Origin: Escherichia coli
GTDB taxonomy: Bacteria > Pseudomonadota > Gammaproteobacteria > Enterobacterales > Enterobacteriaceae
Strand: one strand, 5' to 3'
Assembly: GCF_048403405.1 (NCBI RefSeq)
Contig: NZ_CP183129.1
DNA length: 64,000 bases
Shown here: positions 10,611 to 42,702 of the stretch, one piece after another
Numbering within the stretch: position 1 is the stretch's first letter
How the letters are laid out: each line of letters opens with the position of its first letter
Made by a program: the position numbers and the translations under genes
Notes under the pieces: model-generated
What the model was told of the DNA's origin: nothing
Database searches by the model: none
What the model saw: only the letters and a program-made list of their open reading frames with translations

Positions 10611-10637
10611 GGGAGGCGAAGGTGCCTCCTGTTTTTA
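10611..10637 (+). terminator. rho-independent terminator downstream of envZ
   Basis: Hairpin ggaggc-gaaggt-gcctcc followed by tgttttt. Confidence 0.6.
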
Positions 10638-10931
10638 GATTGTTTTCAATTGATTGATAATGAAAGGATTCGCTTGCAAAAGCAGGAGCAATTTTCGGGG
10701 TGCTCCGGTAGGTTGACGGCGTTTGGTTTCCCAGCTTTTGACCAGGTCATAACTTACCCCTACGGCGACAGCAAAATCTTGCTGACGTAAACCCGTTGCT
10801 TCACGGATCGCTTTTACATCGATTTCGCTAAAAGTATGGACGTGCTCTGGTTCAGGCGCTTCTTCACCCTTTTCGATGCGTACCATTTCTTCTGCGCTGG
10901 CAAGAAGATCAGCAAATAATTCGTCTTTCAT
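10635..10931 (-). CDS. putative type II antitoxin, XRE-family helix-turn-helix protein (YiaG/HigA-like)
   Basis: 98-aa ORF; HTH region GLRQQDFAVAVGVSYDLVKSWETKRRQP and C-terminal LLLLLQANPFIINQL resemble E. coli YiaG-type XRE regulators; 58 bp downstream of, and co-directional with, the toxin ORF. Confidence 0.6.
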   Translation of the reverse strand: MKDELFADLLASAEEMVRIEKGEEAPEPEHVHTFSEIDVKAIREATGLRQQDFAVAVGVSYDLVKSWETKRRQPTGAPRKLLLLLQANPFIINQLKTI

Positions 10932-10989
10932 CTGTTTTCAATGCCTCCGTTGGCATTTCGGCCATGGTGGAATTTGTGGAGCTTCAACA

Positions 10990-11307
10990 TTAAAGCAGCT
11001 TCTCGGACAATAGTTTCAATGCCTTTCTTTGTTCTTCTGTTAAATCATCCTGTTCATTTTTAGGATAAATCAACGCCAGATAAATTCGGCCATTGCGTGT
11101 TACGTTGTAATAAATTATCCGAATGCCACCCCGTTTCCCCATTCCAGAACGGTTCCAGCGAATTTTTCTAAAACTGCCTGTGCCTGCGATAATGTCACCG
11201 GCAGTGGGATCTTGAATGAGTAGTTCCTGAAAAGCCCGGAACTCATCATCAGGTAACAATAACTGGCGGCGTTTGCTAAATCCTTGTAGTTCAATAAACG
11301 TGAACAT
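10990..11307 (-). CDS. putative type II toxin, RelE/ParE superfamily (HigB/Gp49-like)
   Basis: 105-aa ORF; motif GGIRIIYY...RIYLALIYPKNEQDDLTEEQ typical of RelE/HigB-like mRNA interferase folds; AGGA about 6 nt upstream of ATG; toxin-first order as in higBA. Confidence 0.6.
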   Translation of the reverse strand: MFTFIELQGFSKRRQLLLPDDEFRAFQELLIQDPTAGDIIAGTGSFRKIRWNRSGMGKRGGIRIIYYNVTRNGRIYLALIYPKNEQDDLTEEQRKALKLLSEKLL

Positions 11308-33246: not shown

Positions 33247-33273
33247 CAAAAACCGGGGAAACCCGGTTTTTTT
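33247..33273. terminator. rho-independent terminator downstream of trpS
   Basis: aaaaaccggggaaacccggttttttt. Confidence 0.75.
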
Positions 33274-33392
33274 ATCCTCTTTTTGCAATAATCCGAAAAA
33301 ATGTGAAGCGCCTCGCCGTTTCCACATCTCGCAGTTGCCACTTATCTTCATTTTTATGAAGATATAAATATTCACTTTATTGAAAATTTACT

Positions 33393-34298
33393 ATGCGTCG
33401 AACGTTTATCAAAAAAGAAGGCGTCGTCATCACGACACTGGCCCGTTATTTGTTGGGTGAAAAGTGCGGTAATCGACTGAAAACCATAGATGAGCTGGCA
33501 ACTGAATGCCGTTCATCCGTTGGCCTGACGCAGGCCGCGTTGAAAACGCTGGAATCAAGCGGAGCGATACGGATAGAACGCCGTGGGCGTAATGGCAGTT
33601 ATCTGGTGGAAATGGATAACAAAGCGCTGCTGAGTCATGTGGATATCAACAATGTGGTGTGCGCGATGCCCTTGCCCTATACCCGTTTGTACGAAGGCCT
33701 GGCGAGCGGATTGAAAGCTCAGTTTGATGGTATTCCTTTTTACTATGCGCACATGCGCGGCGCGGATATTCGCGTGGAGTGTTTACTTAACGGCGTGTAT
33801 GACATGGCGGTTGTTTCCCGACTGGCGGCGGAAAGTTATCTCACGCAAAAAGGGTTATGCCTCGCGCTGGAGCTGGGGCCGCATACCTACGTTGGCGAGC
33901 ACCAGTTGATTTGCCGTAAAGGCGAGTCCGCAAACGTGAAGCGCGTGGGGCTGGATAACCGTTCGGCGGATCAGAAAATCATGACCGATGTCTTTTTTGG
34001 CGATAGTGATGTGGAACGTGTCGATCTCTCTTATCACGAGAGTTTACAACGCATTGTTAAAGGCGATGTTGATGCGGTGATCTGGAACGTGGTGGCGGAA
34101 AACGAACTGACCATGCTGGGATTAGAAGCGACGCCGCTCACAGACGATCCGCGATTTTTACAGGCCACCGAAGCCGTAGTTTTGACGCGAGTCGATGATT
34201 ACCCAATGCAACAATTGCTGCGTGCAGTTGTTGATAAACAGGCCCTGCTTGCCCATCAACAACGAGTGGTCAGTGGGGAACAGGAACCCAGTTATTAA
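33393..34298 (+). CDS. yhfZ: putative transcriptional regulator YhfZ
   Basis: 301-aa ORF in conserved position after trpS. Confidence 0.8.
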   Translation: MRRTFIKKEGVVITTLARYLLGEKCGNRLKTIDELATECRSSVGLTQAALKTLESSGAIRIERRGRNGSYLVEMDNKALLSHVDINNVVCAMPLPYTRLYEGLASGLKAQFDGIPFYYAHMRGADIRVECLLNGVYDMAVVSRLAAESYLTQKGLCLALELGPHTYVGEHQLICRKGESANVKRVGLDNRSADQKIMTDVFFGDSDVERVDLSYHESLQRIVKGDVDAVIWNVVAENELTMLGLEATPLTDDPRFLQATEAVVLTRVDDYPMQQLLRAVVDKQALLAHQQRVVSGEQEPSY

Positions 34299-34314
34299 AC
34301 GAAAGGCATCTGAA

Positions 34315-34677
34315 ATGGAAACCAGACTCAACCTGCTTTGCGATGCAGGCGTTATTGATAAGGACATCTGCAAAGGCATGATGCAGGTCGTCAATGTCCT
34401 GGAAACAGAGTGCCATCTACCGGTGCGCAGTGAGCAAGGAACGATGGCGATGACACATATGGCGAGTGCACTGATGCGCAGTCGCCGTGGTGAAGAAATA
34501 GAGCCGCTGGATGACGAATTGCTGGCAGAGCTGGCGCAATCCACTCACTGGCCAGCCATTTTACAATTGCATCAGGTGTTGTTGAAGGAATTCGCGCTGG
34601 AAGTTAACCCGTGTGAAGAAGGCTATTTGCTGGCCAACCTTTATGGATTATGGATGGCTGCTAACGAAGAGGTTTGA
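34315..34677 (+). CDS. yhfY: uncharacterised protein YhfY
   Basis: 120 aa from METRLNLLCDAGV (internal start of the 160-aa ORF). Confidence 0.75.
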   Translation: METRLNLLCDAGVIDKDICKGMMQVVNVLETECHLPVRSEQGTMAMTHMASALMRSRRGEEIEPLDDELLAELAQSTHWPAILQLHQVLLKEFALEVNPCEEGYLLANLYGLWMAANEEV

Positions 34678-34760
34678 AGCTCCCGACAAATCCACGTCGC
34701 ATAATCTAAATATTCAGAAAAATGAATATTTAATTCAAGGAACAGAAACGAGGCAACAAG

Positions 34761-35924
34761 ATGTTTGTAGAAGCATTGAAACGCCAGAACCCGGCGCTAA
34801 TTTCCGCCGCACTAAGCTTGTGGCAAAAGGGCAAGATCGCCCCGGACAGCTGGGTGATCGACGTGGATCAGATACTGGAAAACGGTAAGCGGCTGATTGA
34901 GACGGCGCGGCTTTACGGCATTGAACTGTATCTGATGACTAAGCAGTTTGGTCGTAATCCGTGGCTGGCGGAAAAACTGCTGCCATTAGGCTACAGCGGC
35001 ATTGTGGCGGTGGATTACAAAGAGGCGCGAGTCATGCGCCGCGCCGGTTTGCCGGTGGCGCATCAGGGGCATCTGGTACAAATCCCTTGTCATCAGGTTG
35101 CTGACGCCGTTGCACAGGGCACCGACGTCATCACCGTGTTTACTCTCGACAAAGCGCGGGAAGTTTCTGCGGCAGCGGTGAAGGCCGGACGTGTGCAGTC
35201 TGTGCTGCTCAAAGTTTATAGCGACGATGATTTTCTTTATCCGGGGCAGGAGAGCGGTTTTGTACAGCATTCGCTGCACGAGGTGGTTGCTGATATTAAG
35301 AAACTGCCGGGGCTGCATTTAGCCGGACTAACCCATTTCCCTTGCCTGCTTTGGGATGAGGCTGCCGGGAAAGTTTTGCCGACACCGAATCTTCACACGC
35401 TGGTACAAGCACGGGATCAACTGGCGAAATCTGGTATTGCGATTGAGCAACTGAACGCGCCTTCAGCGACCAGCTGCACTTCGCTGCCATTGCTGGCGGA
35501 ATACGGTGTGACTCATGCCGAACCCGGTCATGCGCTGACGGGCACTATTCCGGCAAACCAGCAGGGCGATCAGCCTGAACGTATCGCGATGCTCTGGTTA
35601 AGTGAAATCTCCCATCATTTTCGTGGCGACAGCTACTGCTACGGCGGCGGTTACTACCGTCGTGGTCACGCGCAACATGCGCTGGTGTTTACGCCAGAAA
35701 ATCAAAAGATTACTGAAACCAATCTCAAAACTGTGGATGACAGCAGTATCGACTACACCCTGCCGCTGGCAGGCGAGTTTCCGGTAAGCAGTGCAGTAGT
35801 GCTCTGTTTTCGCACGCAGATTTTTGTCACCCGTAGCGATGTGGTGCTGGTGTCTGGTATTCATCGTGGCGAACCGGAAATCGTCGGTCGTTATGACAGC
35901 CTCGGCAACCCTCTGGAGGCGTAA
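34761..35924 (+). CDS. yhfX: alanine racemase-fold PLP protein YhfX
   Basis: 387-aa ORF matching E. coli YhfX. Confidence 0.85.
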   Translation: MFVEALKRQNPALISAALSLWQKGKIAPDSWVIDVDQILENGKRLIETARLYGIELYLMTKQFGRNPWLAEKLLPLGYSGIVAVDYKEARVMRRAGLPVAHQGHLVQIPCHQVADAVAQGTDVITVFTLDKAREVSAAAVKAGRVQSVLLKVYSDDDFLYPGQESGFVQHSLHEVVADIKKLPGLHLAGLTHFPCLLWDEAAGKVLPTPNLHTLVQARDQLAKSGIAIEQLNAPSATSCTSLPLLAEYGVTHAEPGHALTGTIPANQQGDQPERIAMLWLSEISHHFRGDSYCYGGGYYRRGHAQHALVFTPENQKITETNLKTVDDSSIDYTLPLAGEFPVSSAVVLCFRTQIFVTRSDVVLVSGIHRGEPEIVGRYDSLGNPLEA

Positions 35925-37151
35925 ATGGCGCGATTTGTGGTGTTAGTGATTGATAGCTTTGGCGTAGGGGCAATGAAAGATGTCACGTTGGTGCGTCCGC
36001 AGGATGCCGGGGCGAATACCTGTGGTCACATCCTGAGCCAGTTGCCGCATTTGCAGCTATCAGCGCTGGAGAAGCTGGGGCTAATCAACGCATTGGGTTA
36101 TGCACCAGGTGATATGCAACCGTCAGATTCCGCAACCTGGGGGGTGGCAGAGCTGCAACATGAAGGTGGCGATACCTTTATGGGGCATCAGGAAATTTTA
36201 GGCACGCGCCCGTTACCGCCGCTGCGGATGCCTTTTCGCGATGTGATTGACCGTGTTGAGCAGGCATTAGTATCCGCCGGTTGGCAGGTGGAGCGCCGTG
36301 GCGATGATCTGCAATTTCTGTGGGTCAATCAGGCGGTTGCGATTGGCGATAATCTCGAGGCGGATTTAGGCCAGGTCTATAACATCACCGTCAATCTCTC
36401 TGTGATCTCTTTTGACGACGCAATCAAAATTGGTCGTATCGTGCGTGAGCAGGTACAGGTCGGTCGGGTCATTACATTTGGCGGCCTGTTAACTGACAGT
36501 CAACGCATTCTCGATGCCGCAGAAAGTAAAGAAGGGCGCTTTATTGGCATTAATGCGCCGCGTTCAGGCGCTTATGACAACGGCTTCCAGGTCGTGCATA
36601 TGGGCTACGGTGTTGATGAAAAAGTGCAGGTGCCGCAAAAACTGTATGAAGCGGGCGTGCCAACCGTGCTGGTGGGTAAGGTGGCGGATATCGTCAGCAA
36701 TCCTTATGGCGTGAGCTGGCAAAACCTGGTGGATAGCCAGCGGATTATGGATATCACCCTCGACGAATTTAACACGCATCCGACGGCGTTTATTTGCACC
36801 AATATCCAGGAAACCGACCTCGCTGGTCACGCGGAAGACGTCGCACGTTATGCCGAACGTTTGCAGGTCGTTGACCGTAACCTTGCCCGGCTTATTGAGG
36901 CGATGCAGCCAGATGATTGCCTGGTCGTGATGGCGGATCACGGTAACGATCCGACCATTGGTCACAGCCACCATACCCGCGAAGTGGTGCCAGTGCTGGT
37001 TTATCAGCAAGGGATGGTCGCTACGCAGCTCGGTGTGCGCACCACGCTTTCTGATGTGGGGGCTACCGTGTGTGAATTTTTCCGTGCGCCACCGCCACAA
37101 AATGGTCGCTCTTTTCTTTCCTCCCTCCGGTTTGCAGGAGACACCCTATGA
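35925..37151 (+). CDS. yhfW: phosphopentomutase-like metalloenzyme YhfW
   Basis: 408-aa ORF, start abuts yhfX stop. Confidence 0.85.
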
Positions 37152-38026
37152 GTATTGATCCGACGGGTTACACCCTCGCCCATGAGCATCTGCATATTGA
37201 TCTCTCCGGCTTTAAAAACAACGTGGACTGCCGCCTTGATCAGTATGCGTTCATTTGCCAGGAGATGAACGACCTGATGGCCCAGGGCGTGCGTAATGTG
37301 ATTGAGATGACCAACCGTTACATGGGGCGAAATGCGCAATTTATGCTCGATGTGATGCACGAAACTGGCATCAACGTGGTGGCCTGTACCGGTTATTACC
37401 AGGATGCGTTTTTCCCGCAACATGTGGCGACCCGCAGCGTACAGGAACTGGCGCAGGAGATGGTCGATGAAATTGATCAGGGTATCGATGGCACGGAACT
37501 GAAAGCCGGGATCATCGCGGAGATCGGCTCCAGCGAAGGGAAGATTACGCCGCTGGAAGAGAAGGTGTTTATTGCCGCCGCGCTGGCACATAACCAGACC
37601 GGACGCCCGATCTCCACGCATACGTCGTTCAGCACGATGGGGCTGGAACAACTGGCTCTGTTGCAAGCCCACGGAGTTGATCTTTCGCGCGTCACCGTTG
37701 GTCACTGCGATCTGAAAGACAACCTCGACAACATTTTGAAGATGATCGATCTCGGCGCGTATGTGCAGTTCGACACCATCGGCAAGAACAGTTACTACCC
37801 GGACGAAAGGCGCATTGCGATGCTCCACGCGCTACGTGACCGTGGTTTGCTGAACCGCGTCATGCTGTCGATGGATATTACGCGCCGCTCCCATTTAAAA
37901 GCCAACGGTGGTTATGGCTATGACTATTTATTGACCACCTTTATTCCGCAATTGCGCCAGTCAGGATTCAGTCAGGCCGATGTGGATGTGATGTTACGTG
38001 AAACTCCCTCTCAATTTTTCCAATAA
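37148..38026 (+). CDS. php: phosphotriesterase homology protein (amidohydrolase superfamily)
   Basis: 292-aa ORF starting [20 protein letters not shown] (metal-binding HxH). Confidence 0.9.
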
Positions 38027-38036
38027 GGACAGACTC

Positions 38037-38390
38037 ATGAAAAAGATTGGTGTTGCAGGCTTACAGCGTGAGCAGATTAAAAAAACCATTGAAGCGACGG
38101 CTCCTGGCTGTTTTGAAGTTTTCATTCACAACGACATGGAAGCGGCAATGAAAGTCAAATCCGAGCAACTGGATTACTACATCGGCGCGTGTAATACCGG
38201 TGCGGGCGCGGCATTGTCGATTGCCATCGCGGTGATTGGCTATAACAAAAGTTGCACCATTGCCAAACCAGGCATTAAAGCGAAAGACGAACATATCGCC
38301 AAAATGATCGCCGAAGGGAAAGTGGCGTTTGGGCTTTCCGTTGAGCACGTCGAACACGCGATTCCGATGCTGATTAACCATCTGAAATAA
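38037..38390 (+). CDS. yhfU: uncharacterised protein YhfU
   Basis: 117 aa from MKKIGVAGLQREQ. Confidence 0.78.
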   Translation: MKKIGVAGLQREQIKKTIEATAPGCFEVFIHNDMEAAMKVKSEQLDYYIGACNTGAGAALSIAIAVIGYNKSCTIAKPGIKAKDEHIAKMIAEGKVAFGLSVEHVEHAIPMLINHLK

Positions 38391-38401
38391 AAGGCACGAC
38401 T

Positions 38402-39706
38402 ATGGATCTGTATATTCAGATTATCGTGGTGGCGTGCCTGACGGGTATGACATCGCTTCTGGCGCATCGCTCGGCGGCTGTTTTTCATGACGGTATCCGC
38501 CCGATCCTGCCACAACTGATTGAAGGCTATATGAACCGTCGCGAGGCGGGGAGTATCGCTTTTGGTCTGAGCATTGGTTTTGTGGCCTCGGTGGGGATCT
38601 CGTTTACCCTGAAAACCGGGCTGCTCAACGCATGGTTACTCTTTCTTCCTACCGATATCCTCGGCGTACTGGCGATAAACAGCCTGATGGCGTTTGGTCT
38701 TGGCGCTATCTGGGGCGTGTTGATCCTTACTTGCCTGTTGCCGGTAAACCAGCTGCTGACCGCGCTACCGGTGGATGTATTAGGTAGCCTGGGGGAATTA
38801 AGCTCACCGGTGGTTTCAGCTTTTGCACTGTTCCCGTTGGTGGCGATTTTCTACCAGTTTGGCTGGAAGCAAAGTCTGATCGCCGCCGTGGTGGTACTGA
38901 TGACCCGTGTGGTGGTAGTGCGCTATTTCCCGCATCTCAATCCGGAATCCATCGAAATCTTTATTGGCATGGTGATGCTGCTGGGGATCGCGATAACTCA
39001 CGACCTGCGTCATCGTGATGAAAATGATATTGATGCCAGCGGGCTTTCGGTGTTTGAAGAACGCACGTCGCGGATTATCAAAAACTTACCGTATATCGCT
39101 ATTGTCGGGGCGCTGATTGCCGCCGTTGCCAGCATGAAGATTTTTGCTGGCAGTGAAGTGTCGATCTTCACACTGGAGAAAGCATATTCCGCAGGCGTAA
39201 CGCCGGAACAATCACAAACGCTGATTAACCAGGCAGCTCTGGCGGAATTTATGCGCGGGCTGGGTTTTGTACCGTTGATTGCCACCACCGCGTTAGCCAC
39301 TGGTGTGTATGCAGTTGCGGGCTTTACCTTTGTTTATGCGGTGGGCTATCTCTCGCCGAATCCGATGGTTGCAGCGGTATTAGGCGCAGTGGTTATTTCG
39401 GCGGAAGTCCTGCTGCTTCGTTCGATCGGCAAATGGCTGGGGCGCTACCCGTCGGTGCGTAATGCGTCGGATAACATCCGTAACGCCATGAATATGCTGA
39501 TGGAAGTGGCGTTGCTGGTCGGTTCGATTTTCGCAGCAATTAAAATGGCGGGTTATACCGGATTTTCTATCGCAGTTGCCATTTACTTCCTCAACGAATC
39601 CCTGGGCCGTCCGGTACAGAAAATGGCGGCACCGGTCGTGGCAGTAATGATCACCGGTATTCTGCTGAATGTTCTTTACTGGCTTGGCCTGTTCGTTCCG
39701 GCTTAA
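38402..39706 (+). CDS. yhfT: inner membrane protein YhfT
   Basis: 434-aa polytopic membrane ORF. Confidence 0.85.
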   Translation: MDLYIQIIVVACLTGMTSLLAHRSAAVFHDGIRPILPQLIEGYMNRREAGSIAFGLSIGFVASVGISFTLKTGLLNAWLLFLPTDILGVLAINSLMAFGLGAIWGVLILTCLLPVNQLLTALPVDVLGSLGELSSPVVSAFALFPLVAIFYQFGWKQSLIAAVVVLMTRVVVVRYFPHLNPESIEIFIGMVMLLGIAITHDLRHRDENDIDASGLSVFEERTSRIIKNLPYIAIVGALIAAVASMKIFAGSEVSIFTLEKAYSAGVTPEQSQTLINQAALAEFMRGLGFVPLIATTALATGVYAVAGFTFVYAVGYLSPNPMVAAVLGAVVISAEVLLLRSIGKWLGRYPSVRNASDNIRNAMNMLMEVALLVGSIFAAIKMAGYTGFSIAVAIYFLNESLGRPVQKMAAPVVAVMITGILLNVLYWLGLFVPA

Positions 39707-39717
39707 GGAAGGCACCT

Positions 39718-40803
39718 ATGAAGACGTTTCCTCTGCAAAGCCTGACGATTATTGAGGCGCAGCAAAAGCAGTTTGCGCTGGTGGACACGATTTGCCGCCA
39801 TTTTCCTGGTAGCGAATTTCTTACCTGCGGTGATTTGGGATTAACGCCGGGACTGAATCAACCGCGCATTACCCAGCGTGTGGAACAGGTGCTGGCTGAT
39901 GCATTTCACGCACAGGCTGCGGCGCTGGTACAGGGCGCGGGTACTGGCGCGATCCGTGCGGCGTTGGCGGCTTTGCTCAAACCGGGGCAGCGTCTTCTGG
40001 TGCATGACGCGCCGGTTTACCCGACGACTCAGGTCATTATTGAGCAGATGGGGCTGACGCTTATCACTGCTGATTTCAATGACCTGTTGGCACTGAAGCA
40101 GGTTGTCGACGAGCAACAACCAGATGCCGCGCTGGTGCAGCATACGCGCCAGCAGCCGCAGGACGGGTACATTCTGGCAGATGTGCTGGCAACGTTGCGC
40201 TCGGCTGGCGTTCCTGCATTAACCGATGACAACTATGCGGTGATGAAGGTAGCGCGAATTGGCTGCGAATGCGGGGCAAATGTCTCGACTTTTTCCTGCT
40301 TCAAGCTGTTTGGGCCGGAGGGTGTTGGCGCGGTGGTAGGCGATGCTGATGTTATTAACCGTATTCGCGCCACGCTCTACTCCGGCGGCAGCCAGATTCA
40401 GGGCGCTCAGGCGTTGGAAGTCTTGCGTGGGCTGGTGTTTGCGCCAGTGATGCACGCGGTGCAGGCGGGGGTATCTGAACGGTTGCTGGCCTTGCTCAAC
40501 GGTGGTGCAGTTCCGGAAGTGAAAAGCGCCGTCATTGCCAATGCACAGTCGAAGGTGTTGATTGTCGAGTTTCATCAGCCGATTGCCGCCAGAGTGCTGG
40601 AAGAGGCGCAAAAGCGCGGTGCCTTGCCTTACCCGGTTGGTGCAGAGTCGAAATATGAAATTCCACCGCTCTTTTATCGACTTTCCGGAACGTTTCGCCA
40701 GGTGAATCCGCAACTCGAACATTATGCGATTCGTATTAACCCAAATCGCAGCGGTGAAGAGACGGTGCTGCGGATTTTGCGTGAGAGTATTGCCAGTATT
40801 TAA
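39718..40803 (+). CDS. yhfS: PLP-dependent enzyme-like protein YhfS
   Basis: 361-aa ORF matching E. coli YhfS. Confidence 0.85.
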   Translation: MKTFPLQSLTIIEAQQKQFALVDTICRHFPGSEFLTCGDLGLTPGLNQPRITQRVEQVLADAFHAQAAALVQGAGTGAIRAALAALLKPGQRLLVHDAPVYPTTQVIIEQMGLTLITADFNDLLALKQVVDEQQPDAALVQHTRQQPQDGYILADVLATLRSAGVPALTDDNYAVMKVARIGCECGANVSTFSCFKLFGPEGVGAVVGDADVINRIRATLYSGGSQIQGAQALEVLRGLVFAPVMHAVQAGVSERLLALLNGGAVPEVKSAVIANAQSKVLIVEFHQPIAARVLEEAQKRGALPYPVGAESKYEIPPLFYRLSGTFRQVNPQLEHYAIRINPNRSGEETVLRILRESIASI

Positions 40804-40843
40804 TCTTGTGCATGATGTTTTCGAAAAGAATGCAGAAATAAAT

Positions 40844-40869
40844 ACGCCCTCGGGTAACCCCGAGGGCGT
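40844..40869. terminator. bidirectional terminator between convergent yhfS and yhfL
   Basis: acgccctcgggtaaccccgagggcgt hairpin. Confidence 0.6.
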
Positions 40870-40909
40870 CAGGCAATTAAACCGGTGTTAGCCGATTTCT
40901 GTCAGAGAC

Positions 40910-41077
40910 TTACTGTGCAGTAGGACCGCAACCGCCAATGATTTTAGAAATAGAAATTGCCGGGTGCAGCAGGTAGTCGTAAGAGCAGTTCTTATCACGG
41001 TTTTCAATATGACCAGTACATGCAGTTAACGTAGCCAGTACTGCGCCTACCAGTGCAACTTTAATAAATTTGTTCAT
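40910..41077 (-). CDS. yhfL: small lipoprotein YhfL
   Basis: 55-aa ORF MNKFIKVALVGAVLATLTACTGH... with lipobox LTAC; not in the ORF track (below length cutoff), read manually. Confidence 0.8.
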   Translation of the reverse strand: MNKFIKVALVGAVLATLTACTGHIENRDKNCSYDYLLHPAISISKIIGGCGPTAQ

Positions 41078-41293
41078 TTACATTCCCTATGTATTATATA
41101 TTAATTAATATTCATTGATTATATGAATATAAGCAGACTGCTCATTAAGAACGATACAGGAATATTCAATTAGCGTCAGTGAGCGATTGATTTAATTTTG
41201 TAAGTCGCTGTAACGGTGAATATAACCCATTAGCAGACAATATTTATTAAGGGGGTATCTTTTTATCTGCTGAATATATAAAGAGAGTTGTAA

Positions 41294-41320
41294 ACGAAAA
41301 AGGCCAGACTTCTCTGGCCC
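41294..41320 (-). terminator. rho-independent terminator downstream of cysG
   Basis: ggccagacttctctggcc hairpin followed by T-run on minus strand. Confidence 0.65.
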
Positions 41321-41328
41321 TGGTTAAA

Positions 41329-42702
41329 TTAATGGTTAGAGAACCAGTTCAATTTATCGCGCAGGCCAACAACCCGACCAATAATAATTAGCGATGGACT
41401 GTTCATTTGCTGCGCCAGTTCGCCCAGCTGCGTGAGCGTACCGTCAATCACGCGCTGCGTGACTGCCGTTCCGTTTTCGACAATTGCCACCGGCATTTCG
41501 CCAGGCATACCGTGTTCAATCAGCTTTTGCTGAATAGTCGCAGCCTGATTCAGCCCCATATAAAACACCAGCGTCTGTTTTTCTGCCGCCAGGTTTTCCC
41601 AGTCCAGTTCGCCACCGGTTTTTAAGTGTCCGGTAATTAAGCGTACGCTCTGGGCATAATCGCGATGCGTGAGCGGAATACCCGAATAGGCAGAGCAACC
41701 AGAAGCTGCGGTAATACCCGGAACCACCGAGAACGGAATACCCGCGTTGCACAGTGTTTCCAGCTCTTCGCCACCACGGCCAAAAATAAACGGATCGCCA
41801 CCTTTCAGCCGCACCACGCGTTTGCCTTTTTGCGCTTCCCGCAGCAGGATCTGGTTTATCTCTTCCTGCGGTACGCAGTGGTATCCCGCGCGTTTGCCGA
41901 CGAAAACGCGATCCGCATCGCGGCGTACCAGATTCATAATATCGTCAGAAACCAGACGGTCGTAGACCACCACATCTGCCTGCTGAATTTGTTGCAGTCC
42001 TTTTAGTGTCAGCAGCCCGGCATCGCCCGGACCTGCGCCAACCAGCACCACTTCACCGCGATGGTCGAGCGGTTCGTTGATTAACTGTTCGGTCGTTTCA
42101 GTAATGGCTTTCTGATCGTTGTTTGCCAGCGACTGCGCCAGGCGGTCATTAACGAACAGTTTTTCCCAGAAACGGCGACGCTCACCCATCGTGGCGAACT
42201 GTTGTTTCACTCGCCCGCGTAATTGCCCGGCGTATTTCGCCACCTGGCCCAGATGCAACGGCAGCAGTGATTCAAGTTTTTCGCGTAACAGGCGCGCCAG
42301 AACCGGAGAGGTGCCGCCAGAGGAGACCGCGACCATTAGCGGTGAGCGGTCAATAATCGACGGCATAATAAAGCTGGCGGCTTTCGGCGCATCGACCACG
42401 TTACAGAAGATGCGACGAGCTTCAGCGGCTTCACTGACGCGCTGGTTAAGCGCGTCATCATCCGTCGCAGCAATTGCCAGCCAGCAGGTGTCGAGAAGGC
42501 TTTCATCAAATGGCCCTTCGACGAGGGTTAACATGCCTGCATCTGCCCATGCGGTGAACTGTGGAATAAACGCTAATGCATTCACCGTTAAGCGAGCGCC
42601 TGCGTCTAACAGCAACCTTGCTTTGCGTTCCGCGACATCACCACCGCCGACAATCAGACAGTCGCGATCGCGTAATTGGCAAAATATAGGCAAATGATCC
42701 AC
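41329..42702 (-). CDS. cysG: siroheme synthase (multifunctional)
   Basis: 457-aa ORF matching E. coli CysG. Confidence 0.95.

Follow-up and report, generated by a model that had tools for sequence, protein, structure and literature searches.

The frl-free junction between yhfS and yhfL in an Escherichia coli genome as a probable ancestral-type allele

In the 64-kb stretch of Escherichia coli DNA analyzed here (hereafter, the window), the convergent genes yhfS and yhfL are separated by a spacer of 106 bp (40804..40909), an arrangement that very probably represents the ancestral-type, unoccupied allele of this site, with the frlABCDR locus found there in other strains being an old insertion and with no Frl route available in the present strain. 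In K-12, frlABCDR is responsible for the catabolism of fructoselysine and psicoselysine (Wiame et al. 2002, 2004, as cited in PMC5996543). The case for this polarity is carried by a 29-bp sequence in the spacer that is conserved in other species of Escherichia and is missing from the frl-positive alleles compared, and by the recurrence of the empty arrangement in many genera of Enterobacteriaceae.

Layout of the junction and its hairpins

The conserved cluster yhfZ-yhfY-yhfX-yhfW-php-yhfU-yhfT (33392..39706, plus strand; positions transferred from the annotation of strain 118UI) lies 5' of yhfS (39718..40803, plus strand), which encodes a PLP-dependent aminotransferase-like protein of 361 aa and the stop codon of which ends at 40803. 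From the other side, the spacer is approached by yhfL (40910..41077, minus strand), which encodes a DUF4223 lipoprotein of 55 aa, with the conserved neighbour cysG (siroheme synthase; 41329..42702, minus strand) and, beyond it, nirC, identified using tblastn. When the K-12 proteins were compared with the window (tblastn), the proteins of the yhf cluster showed 95–99.8% identity to their K-12 counterparts, YhfS 96% and YhfL 100%, and the nucleotide difference from K-12 in yhfS was 7.5%; FrlA, FrlB, FrlC, FrlD and FrlR produced no match within the 64-kb window. As in an unoccupied allele, yhfS and yhfL are direct convergent neighbours, with zero genes between them. A sequence-only reading of the window had placed the stop of yhfS at 40803 and that of yhfL at 40910, 106 bp apart, and these coordinates are exact. 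It had also taken the strain to be distinct from K-12, in agreement with the blastn comparison, in which the flanks are about 98% and the yhfZ-yhfS region 95.5% identical to K-12.

Neither an IS element nor a fragment of frl was found in the 106-bp spacer, every base of which can be aligned to the spacers of outgroup Escherichia, so that the earlier remark on the lack of an frl remnant or IS scar holds from end to end. The marks of a deletion scar, namely, gene remnants, an IS element and a junction absent from outgroups, were likewise not found at the spacer. A promoter scan detected no sigma-70-like site in 40600–41400, and no Rfam family was detected in 40300–41500 (scan at E ≤ 1).

The spacer harbors two hairpins on the yhfL strand. 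The larger one (40844..40869, minus strand) has a stem of 11 bp, 9 of its pairs being G-C, that closes a 4-nt loop and is followed by the tail AUUUAUUUCU; it is predicted to be a canonical intrinsic terminator for yhfL only. It was reported on the minus strand only by a terminator consensus scan, its fold energy z-scores are -4.3 and -4.4, and two of its pairs show compensatory changes across Escherichia. On the plus strand, the sequence 3' of the stem is CAGGCAAUUAAACC, and thus the U-tract on both strands that characterizes a bidirectional terminator is not present; a bidirectional role is not clear, and the hairpin might still impede transcription of yhfS. The second, smaller hairpin (40879..40898, minus strand) is a conserved element of the yhfL 3' UTR that has a 7-bp stem, is included in the MFE structure, and has one pair that is changed from G-C to A-U in 3 of 10 sequences. 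Across the ten Escherichia alleles, 97% of the hairpin cells are paired and three pairs show compensatory changes, which exceeds the shuffled and slid controls in this small sample (10 alleles). The spacer had previously been described as containing one bidirectional hairpin terminator: a hairpin is indeed present, its T-rich tail lies on the minus strand only, and the conserved hairpins number two.

The occupied allele and the polarity of the site

In the annotation of K-12 MG1655, nirBDC-cysG-yhfL-frlA-frlB-frlC-frlD-frlR precedes yhfS...yhfZ, which is encoded on the other strand; from yhfL to yhfS, this is the K-12 gene order that the sequence-only reading had given. The stop codons of yhfL and yhfS in MG1655 are 5,319 bp apart, with frlABCDR in between, compared with the 106 bp of the window, which bears out the central claim of that reading, that frlABCDR is missing between yhfS and yhfL. 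The K-12 locus and the window are flanked in the same way, by nirBDC-cysG-yhfL at one end and by yhfS...yhfZ-trpS at the other, and are also alike in the first 76 nt past the yhfL stop, terminator included. In the blastn alignment of the window with K-12, a 5,242-bp segment present only in K-12 stands opposite 29 bases present only in the window (40805–40833), which we consider ancestral filler and which are replaced in the frl-positive strains K-12, E69 and EDL933. As measured in K-12, the replacing segment consists of frlA-frlB-frlC-frlD-frlR together with REP and boxC-like repeats, and these repeats form the end of the insert that adjoins yhfS.

On the yhfL side, the breakpoint falls between 40833 and 40834, 76 nt beyond the stop of yhfL. 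Side-by-side comparison of the sequences shows that all three frl-positive alleles (K-12, EDL933 and E69) depart exactly after ...GTATTTGTTTCT and hence have their left breakpoint in common. All the empty alleles read ...GTATTT(G/A)TTTCT-GCATTCTTTTCGAAAA...-TTA, where TTA is the stop of yhfS, and the frl-positive alleles diverge right after ...TTTCT. Inspection of the K-12 sequence revealed neither direct repeats nor mobility genes at the ends of the insert, and its G+C content is not foreign (53.8% vs 53–57% in the flanking genes other than yhfL). The O157:H7 strain EDL933 (NZ_CP008957.1, 4300452–4318495) has the cysG-yhfL side and the yhfL terminator in common with the window, and its gene order is cysG-yhfL-frlABC-frlD pseudogene (internal stop)-frlR, with trpS directly thereafter. 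Unlike the window, EDL933 lacks the entire yhfS-yhfZ cluster, and its frlR-trpS arrangement constitutes a third allele of the locus.

Several differences from K-12 were observed elsewhere in the window. The interval between envZ and pck contains, on the minus strand (10635–11307), a gene for a RelE/ParE-family toxin (10990–11307, 105 aa) and, beside it, a gene for a NadS/HTH antitoxin-like protein (10635–10931, 98 aa); K-12 lacks this 779-bp insert with its toxin/antitoxin-like pair, which 1,324 of the 5,426 complete E. coli genomes contain. About 100 bp of the window (~991–1093) did not align to K-12, and about 130 bp of the K-12 trpS-yhfZ sequence is missing from the window near 33250; these small indels are probably REP-type repeats.

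The state of the site in outgroups was examined by a scan of YhfS relatives, with one genome per species and tblastn searches with K-12 proteins, in which 80 loci with flanks were recovered and 47 of them tabulated. In E. whittamii, Escherichia sp. MOD1-EC7003, ‘E. coli’ SCPM-O-B-8794 and E. albertii, yhfS directly precedes yhfL and/or cysG, and the same frl-free synteny was observed in seven Citrobacter loci, in Enterobacter, Buttiauxella and Superficieibacter, and in other genera, for a total of at least 30 outgroup loci with the empty arrangement among the 47 tabulated. The yhfZ-yhfT cluster that leads up to yhfS likewise adjoins yhfL/cysG in the outgroups. Among these 47 loci, frl was detected in the flank of up to 10 kb that follows yhfS only in ‘E. 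coli’ E69. The entire 106-bp spacer, including the 29-bp filler, is conserved in the alignment of E. whittamii, MOD1-EC7003, SCPM-O-B-8794 and E. albertii, so that the window spacer has its homologues in species taken never to have carried frl. Because the filler is conserved in other Escherichia, the empty site appears to be ancestral, and the insertion of frl would have replaced approximately 29 bp; the site bears no scar for the same reason, being an unoccupied ancestral allele rather than the product of a deletion. The empty junctions of other Escherichia (E. albertii, E. whittamii and cryptic-clade genomes) resemble the window in the convergence of yhfS with yhfL-cysG, in the full-length alignable spacer and in the presence of both hairpins, and differ from it only by point substitutions and small indels. 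In Citrobacter, Enterobacter and Buttiauxella, the convergence is equally direct, but the spacer is shorter and non-alignable, and some genera lack yhfL. In the same scan, the proteins in the yhfU/yhfT positions of some Citrobacter, Buttiauxella, Providencia and other loci were found to be 31–45% identical to those of E. coli, compared with 65–85% for their neighbours, which suggests that the yhf cluster contains one of two alternative transporter modules.

The following scenario would account for these observations. In the ancestor of Escherichia, as in many other Enterobacteriaceae, yhfZ...yhfS would have converged on yhfL-cysG over a short spacer containing the yhfL terminator. In what we infer to be a single ancient insertion event, a 5.2-kb segment, carrying frlA-frlB-frlC-frlD-frlR with their own promoter region and the trailing REP and boxC-like repeats, would have entered early on, 76 nt past the stop codon of yhfL, and replaced the ~29 bp adjoining the yhfS stop. 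The present outcome would be the coexistence of the occupied allele, which K-12 possesses, and the unoccupied allele among complete E. coli genomes.

Age of the alleles and rival explanations

E69 (CP089930.1), a divergent ‘E. coli’, carries frlABCDR at the same breakpoints as K-12, and its frl genes have diverged from those of K-12 by 4–9%. Because this divergence is comparable to that of the flanking genes of the same strain (5.5% for cysG and 6.7% for yhfT), the frl insertion appears to be old rather than a recent transfer. The window diverges most from K-12 at the junction, by 6.6% in 40000–41000, compared with 4–5% in yhfZ-yhfS and about 2% elsewhere. The nucleotide divergence of yhfS is 7–9% between E. 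coli lineages, against 2–3% for cysG and nirC, and 10–11% between E. coli and other Escherichia species. It is possible, if rather unlikely, that the site harbors an ancient presence/absence polymorphism that is older than the diversification of E. coli, with both alleles long maintained or repeatedly introgressed; this reading draws on the proportional divergence of frl in E69, the empty allele in other Escherichia and the high divergence of yhfS. Such maintenance may involve, for example, diet- or niche-dependent balancing selection on the use of Amadori products, or introgression from other Escherichia.

Within E. coli, complete (100%) identity to the junction of the window is confined to ST69 genomes (e.g. 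118UI), which belong to phylogroup D (PMC8900328; PMC8454413), and to the MS 69-1-like lineage. The match to 118UI is complete over the 1.1 kb of the junction and drops to 98.7% over 41 kb, whereas TUM1226, OX030728, strain 4621, MS 69-1, TUM14771 and GN02461 show 100% identity to the window throughout the compared 24.5 kb. No usable phylogroup or ST was found in the literature for MS 69-1, GN02461 and the TUM strains. The window is identical to ST69 genomes (118UI) over approximately 40000–42000 and differs from them by 1–3% in the neighbouring DNA on both sides, so that this patch has the appearance of a recombination tract that both share and that has the junction at its centre, and the allele of the window lineage may have arrived by homologous recombination rather than by uninterrupted vertical descent.

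The patch brings up an explanation under which an frl-positive ancestor would have lost the locus secondarily, by receiving an empty allele from another lineage of E. coli through homologous recombination within yhfS on one flank and yhfL/cysG on the other, with an outcome that would look identical to the ancestral allele. The ST69 identity of the patch and the difference on either side of it are compatible with such an exchange, as is the age of the frl-positive allele, in that the proportional divergence in E69 implies that both alleles have long been available. However, a mosaic pattern of divergence is ordinary for E. coli and is silent on which state was replaced, and all haplotypes listed as nearest over 24.5 kb are empty, so that nothing points to a recent frl-positive ancestor; we consider secondary loss improbable for this lineage. 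A clean, scarless deletion that removed frlABCDR from an arrangement like that of K-12, for instance, by illegitimate recombination, is implicit in describing the locus as absent and, judged from the window alone, would be compatible with the 5.2 kb missing relative to K-12. Such a deletion cannot recreate the 29 bp that are absent from every frl-positive allele and conserved in other Escherichia, and the empty arrangement is common to many genera, making this route extremely unlikely.

The 64-kb window alone cannot argue against a relocation of frl to another site in the genome or to a plasmid, or against the junction being an assembly artefact. Therefore, chimeric queries were assembled from 2 kb of the window junction and K-12 frl segments placed on the opposite strand, and compared with complete genomes by blastn with a word size of 11; with such queries, the target genomes rank first, and the number of places per record exposes additional frl matches. 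The sensitivity of this search extends, at the DNA level, down to approximately 65–70% identity. With the frlB/frlC, frlA and frlD/frlR pieces alike, only the junction place was found in all six genomes identical to the window and in the ST69 genomes, and frlABCD was found on none of the plasmid records of the collection. The possibility, raised together with the original observation, that frl resides elsewhere in the genome is thus answered in the negative at the DNA level, by way of six independent, complete, window-identical genomes. An artefact is further contradicted by the contiguity of the same junction in 2,105 complete genomes, and no support was found for either relocation or artefact, which we regard as barely conceivable. 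The ancestral-type unoccupied allele, which as judged through the window-identical genomes appears to be accompanied by no frl genes anywhere in the genome, is accordingly the reading retained below.

Distribution and significance of the frl-negative state

A 1.1-kb query spanning the frl-free junction was contiguous in those 2,105 of the 5,426 complete E. coli genomes (~39%), and the K-12 frl segment was essentially complete in 3,297 (~61%), the two classes together covering all but about 20 genomes. The coding DNA of frlABCD was detected in 3,300 genomes; its location was chromosomal throughout, with one place per genome except for a few cases in which it is split by an IS. The haplotype of the window is unlike the majority frl-negative one, being approximately 94.5% identical to most empty junctions. 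The junction architecture of frl-negative uropathogenic genomes, such as U15A, is the same as in the window, and the B2 strain LF82, like the window, has zero frl coding DNA. In the O145 strain RM12522-C8, which has an frl-negative junction, the neighbouring yhfT is annotated as frameshifted.

The frl-negative state is an already known, ordinary gene-content polymorphism. The absence of frl has been described as a signature of phylogroup B2/ExPEC (PMC5996543, Fang et al. 2018; bioRxiv 10.1101/2025.09.14.675865), and genome-scale models, in which the frl trait is used to separate B2/ExPEC-like from A/B1/E strains, predict loss of growth on fructoselysine and psicoselysine in frl-negative strains (PMC5996543; see also bioRxiv 10.1101/2025.09.14.675865). 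The gene content of the B2/ExPEC frl-negative genotype is the same as that of the window, without the fructoselysine transporter, kinase and deglycase. A pangenome study placed Amadori degradation among the genes exclusive to the B2/D-side phylons (PMC11774025); this statement conflicts with the other papers and with the genome counts reported here, and was set aside as a matter of wording. Also set aside, as evidence on phylogroup D, was an frl-positive record labelled ‘E. coli 042’ (NZ_CP042934.2, 4.69 Mb, Switzerland), the identity of which with the reference strain EAEC 042 is doubtful.

Because the allele is unoccupied and frl is absent elsewhere, the strain would lack the route for fructoselysine and psicoselysine that comprises the FrlA transporter, the FrlD kinase, the FrlB deglycase and the FrlC epimerase, and we infer from its gene content that it would fail to grow on fructoselysine via Frl. 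For annotation, the gain is that the strain can be counted among the E. coli without an Frl pathway (roughly 39%), which has little import beyond strain typing; the only mildly new point is the polarity, that is, the probable ancestral state of the empty site and the status of frl as an old insertion. Mutations in frlR, frlA and frlC recur in the mouse gut, where frl is under selection (bioRxiv 10.64898/2026.05.27.728231), and the absence of frl, although well documented, is therefore ecologically meaningful.
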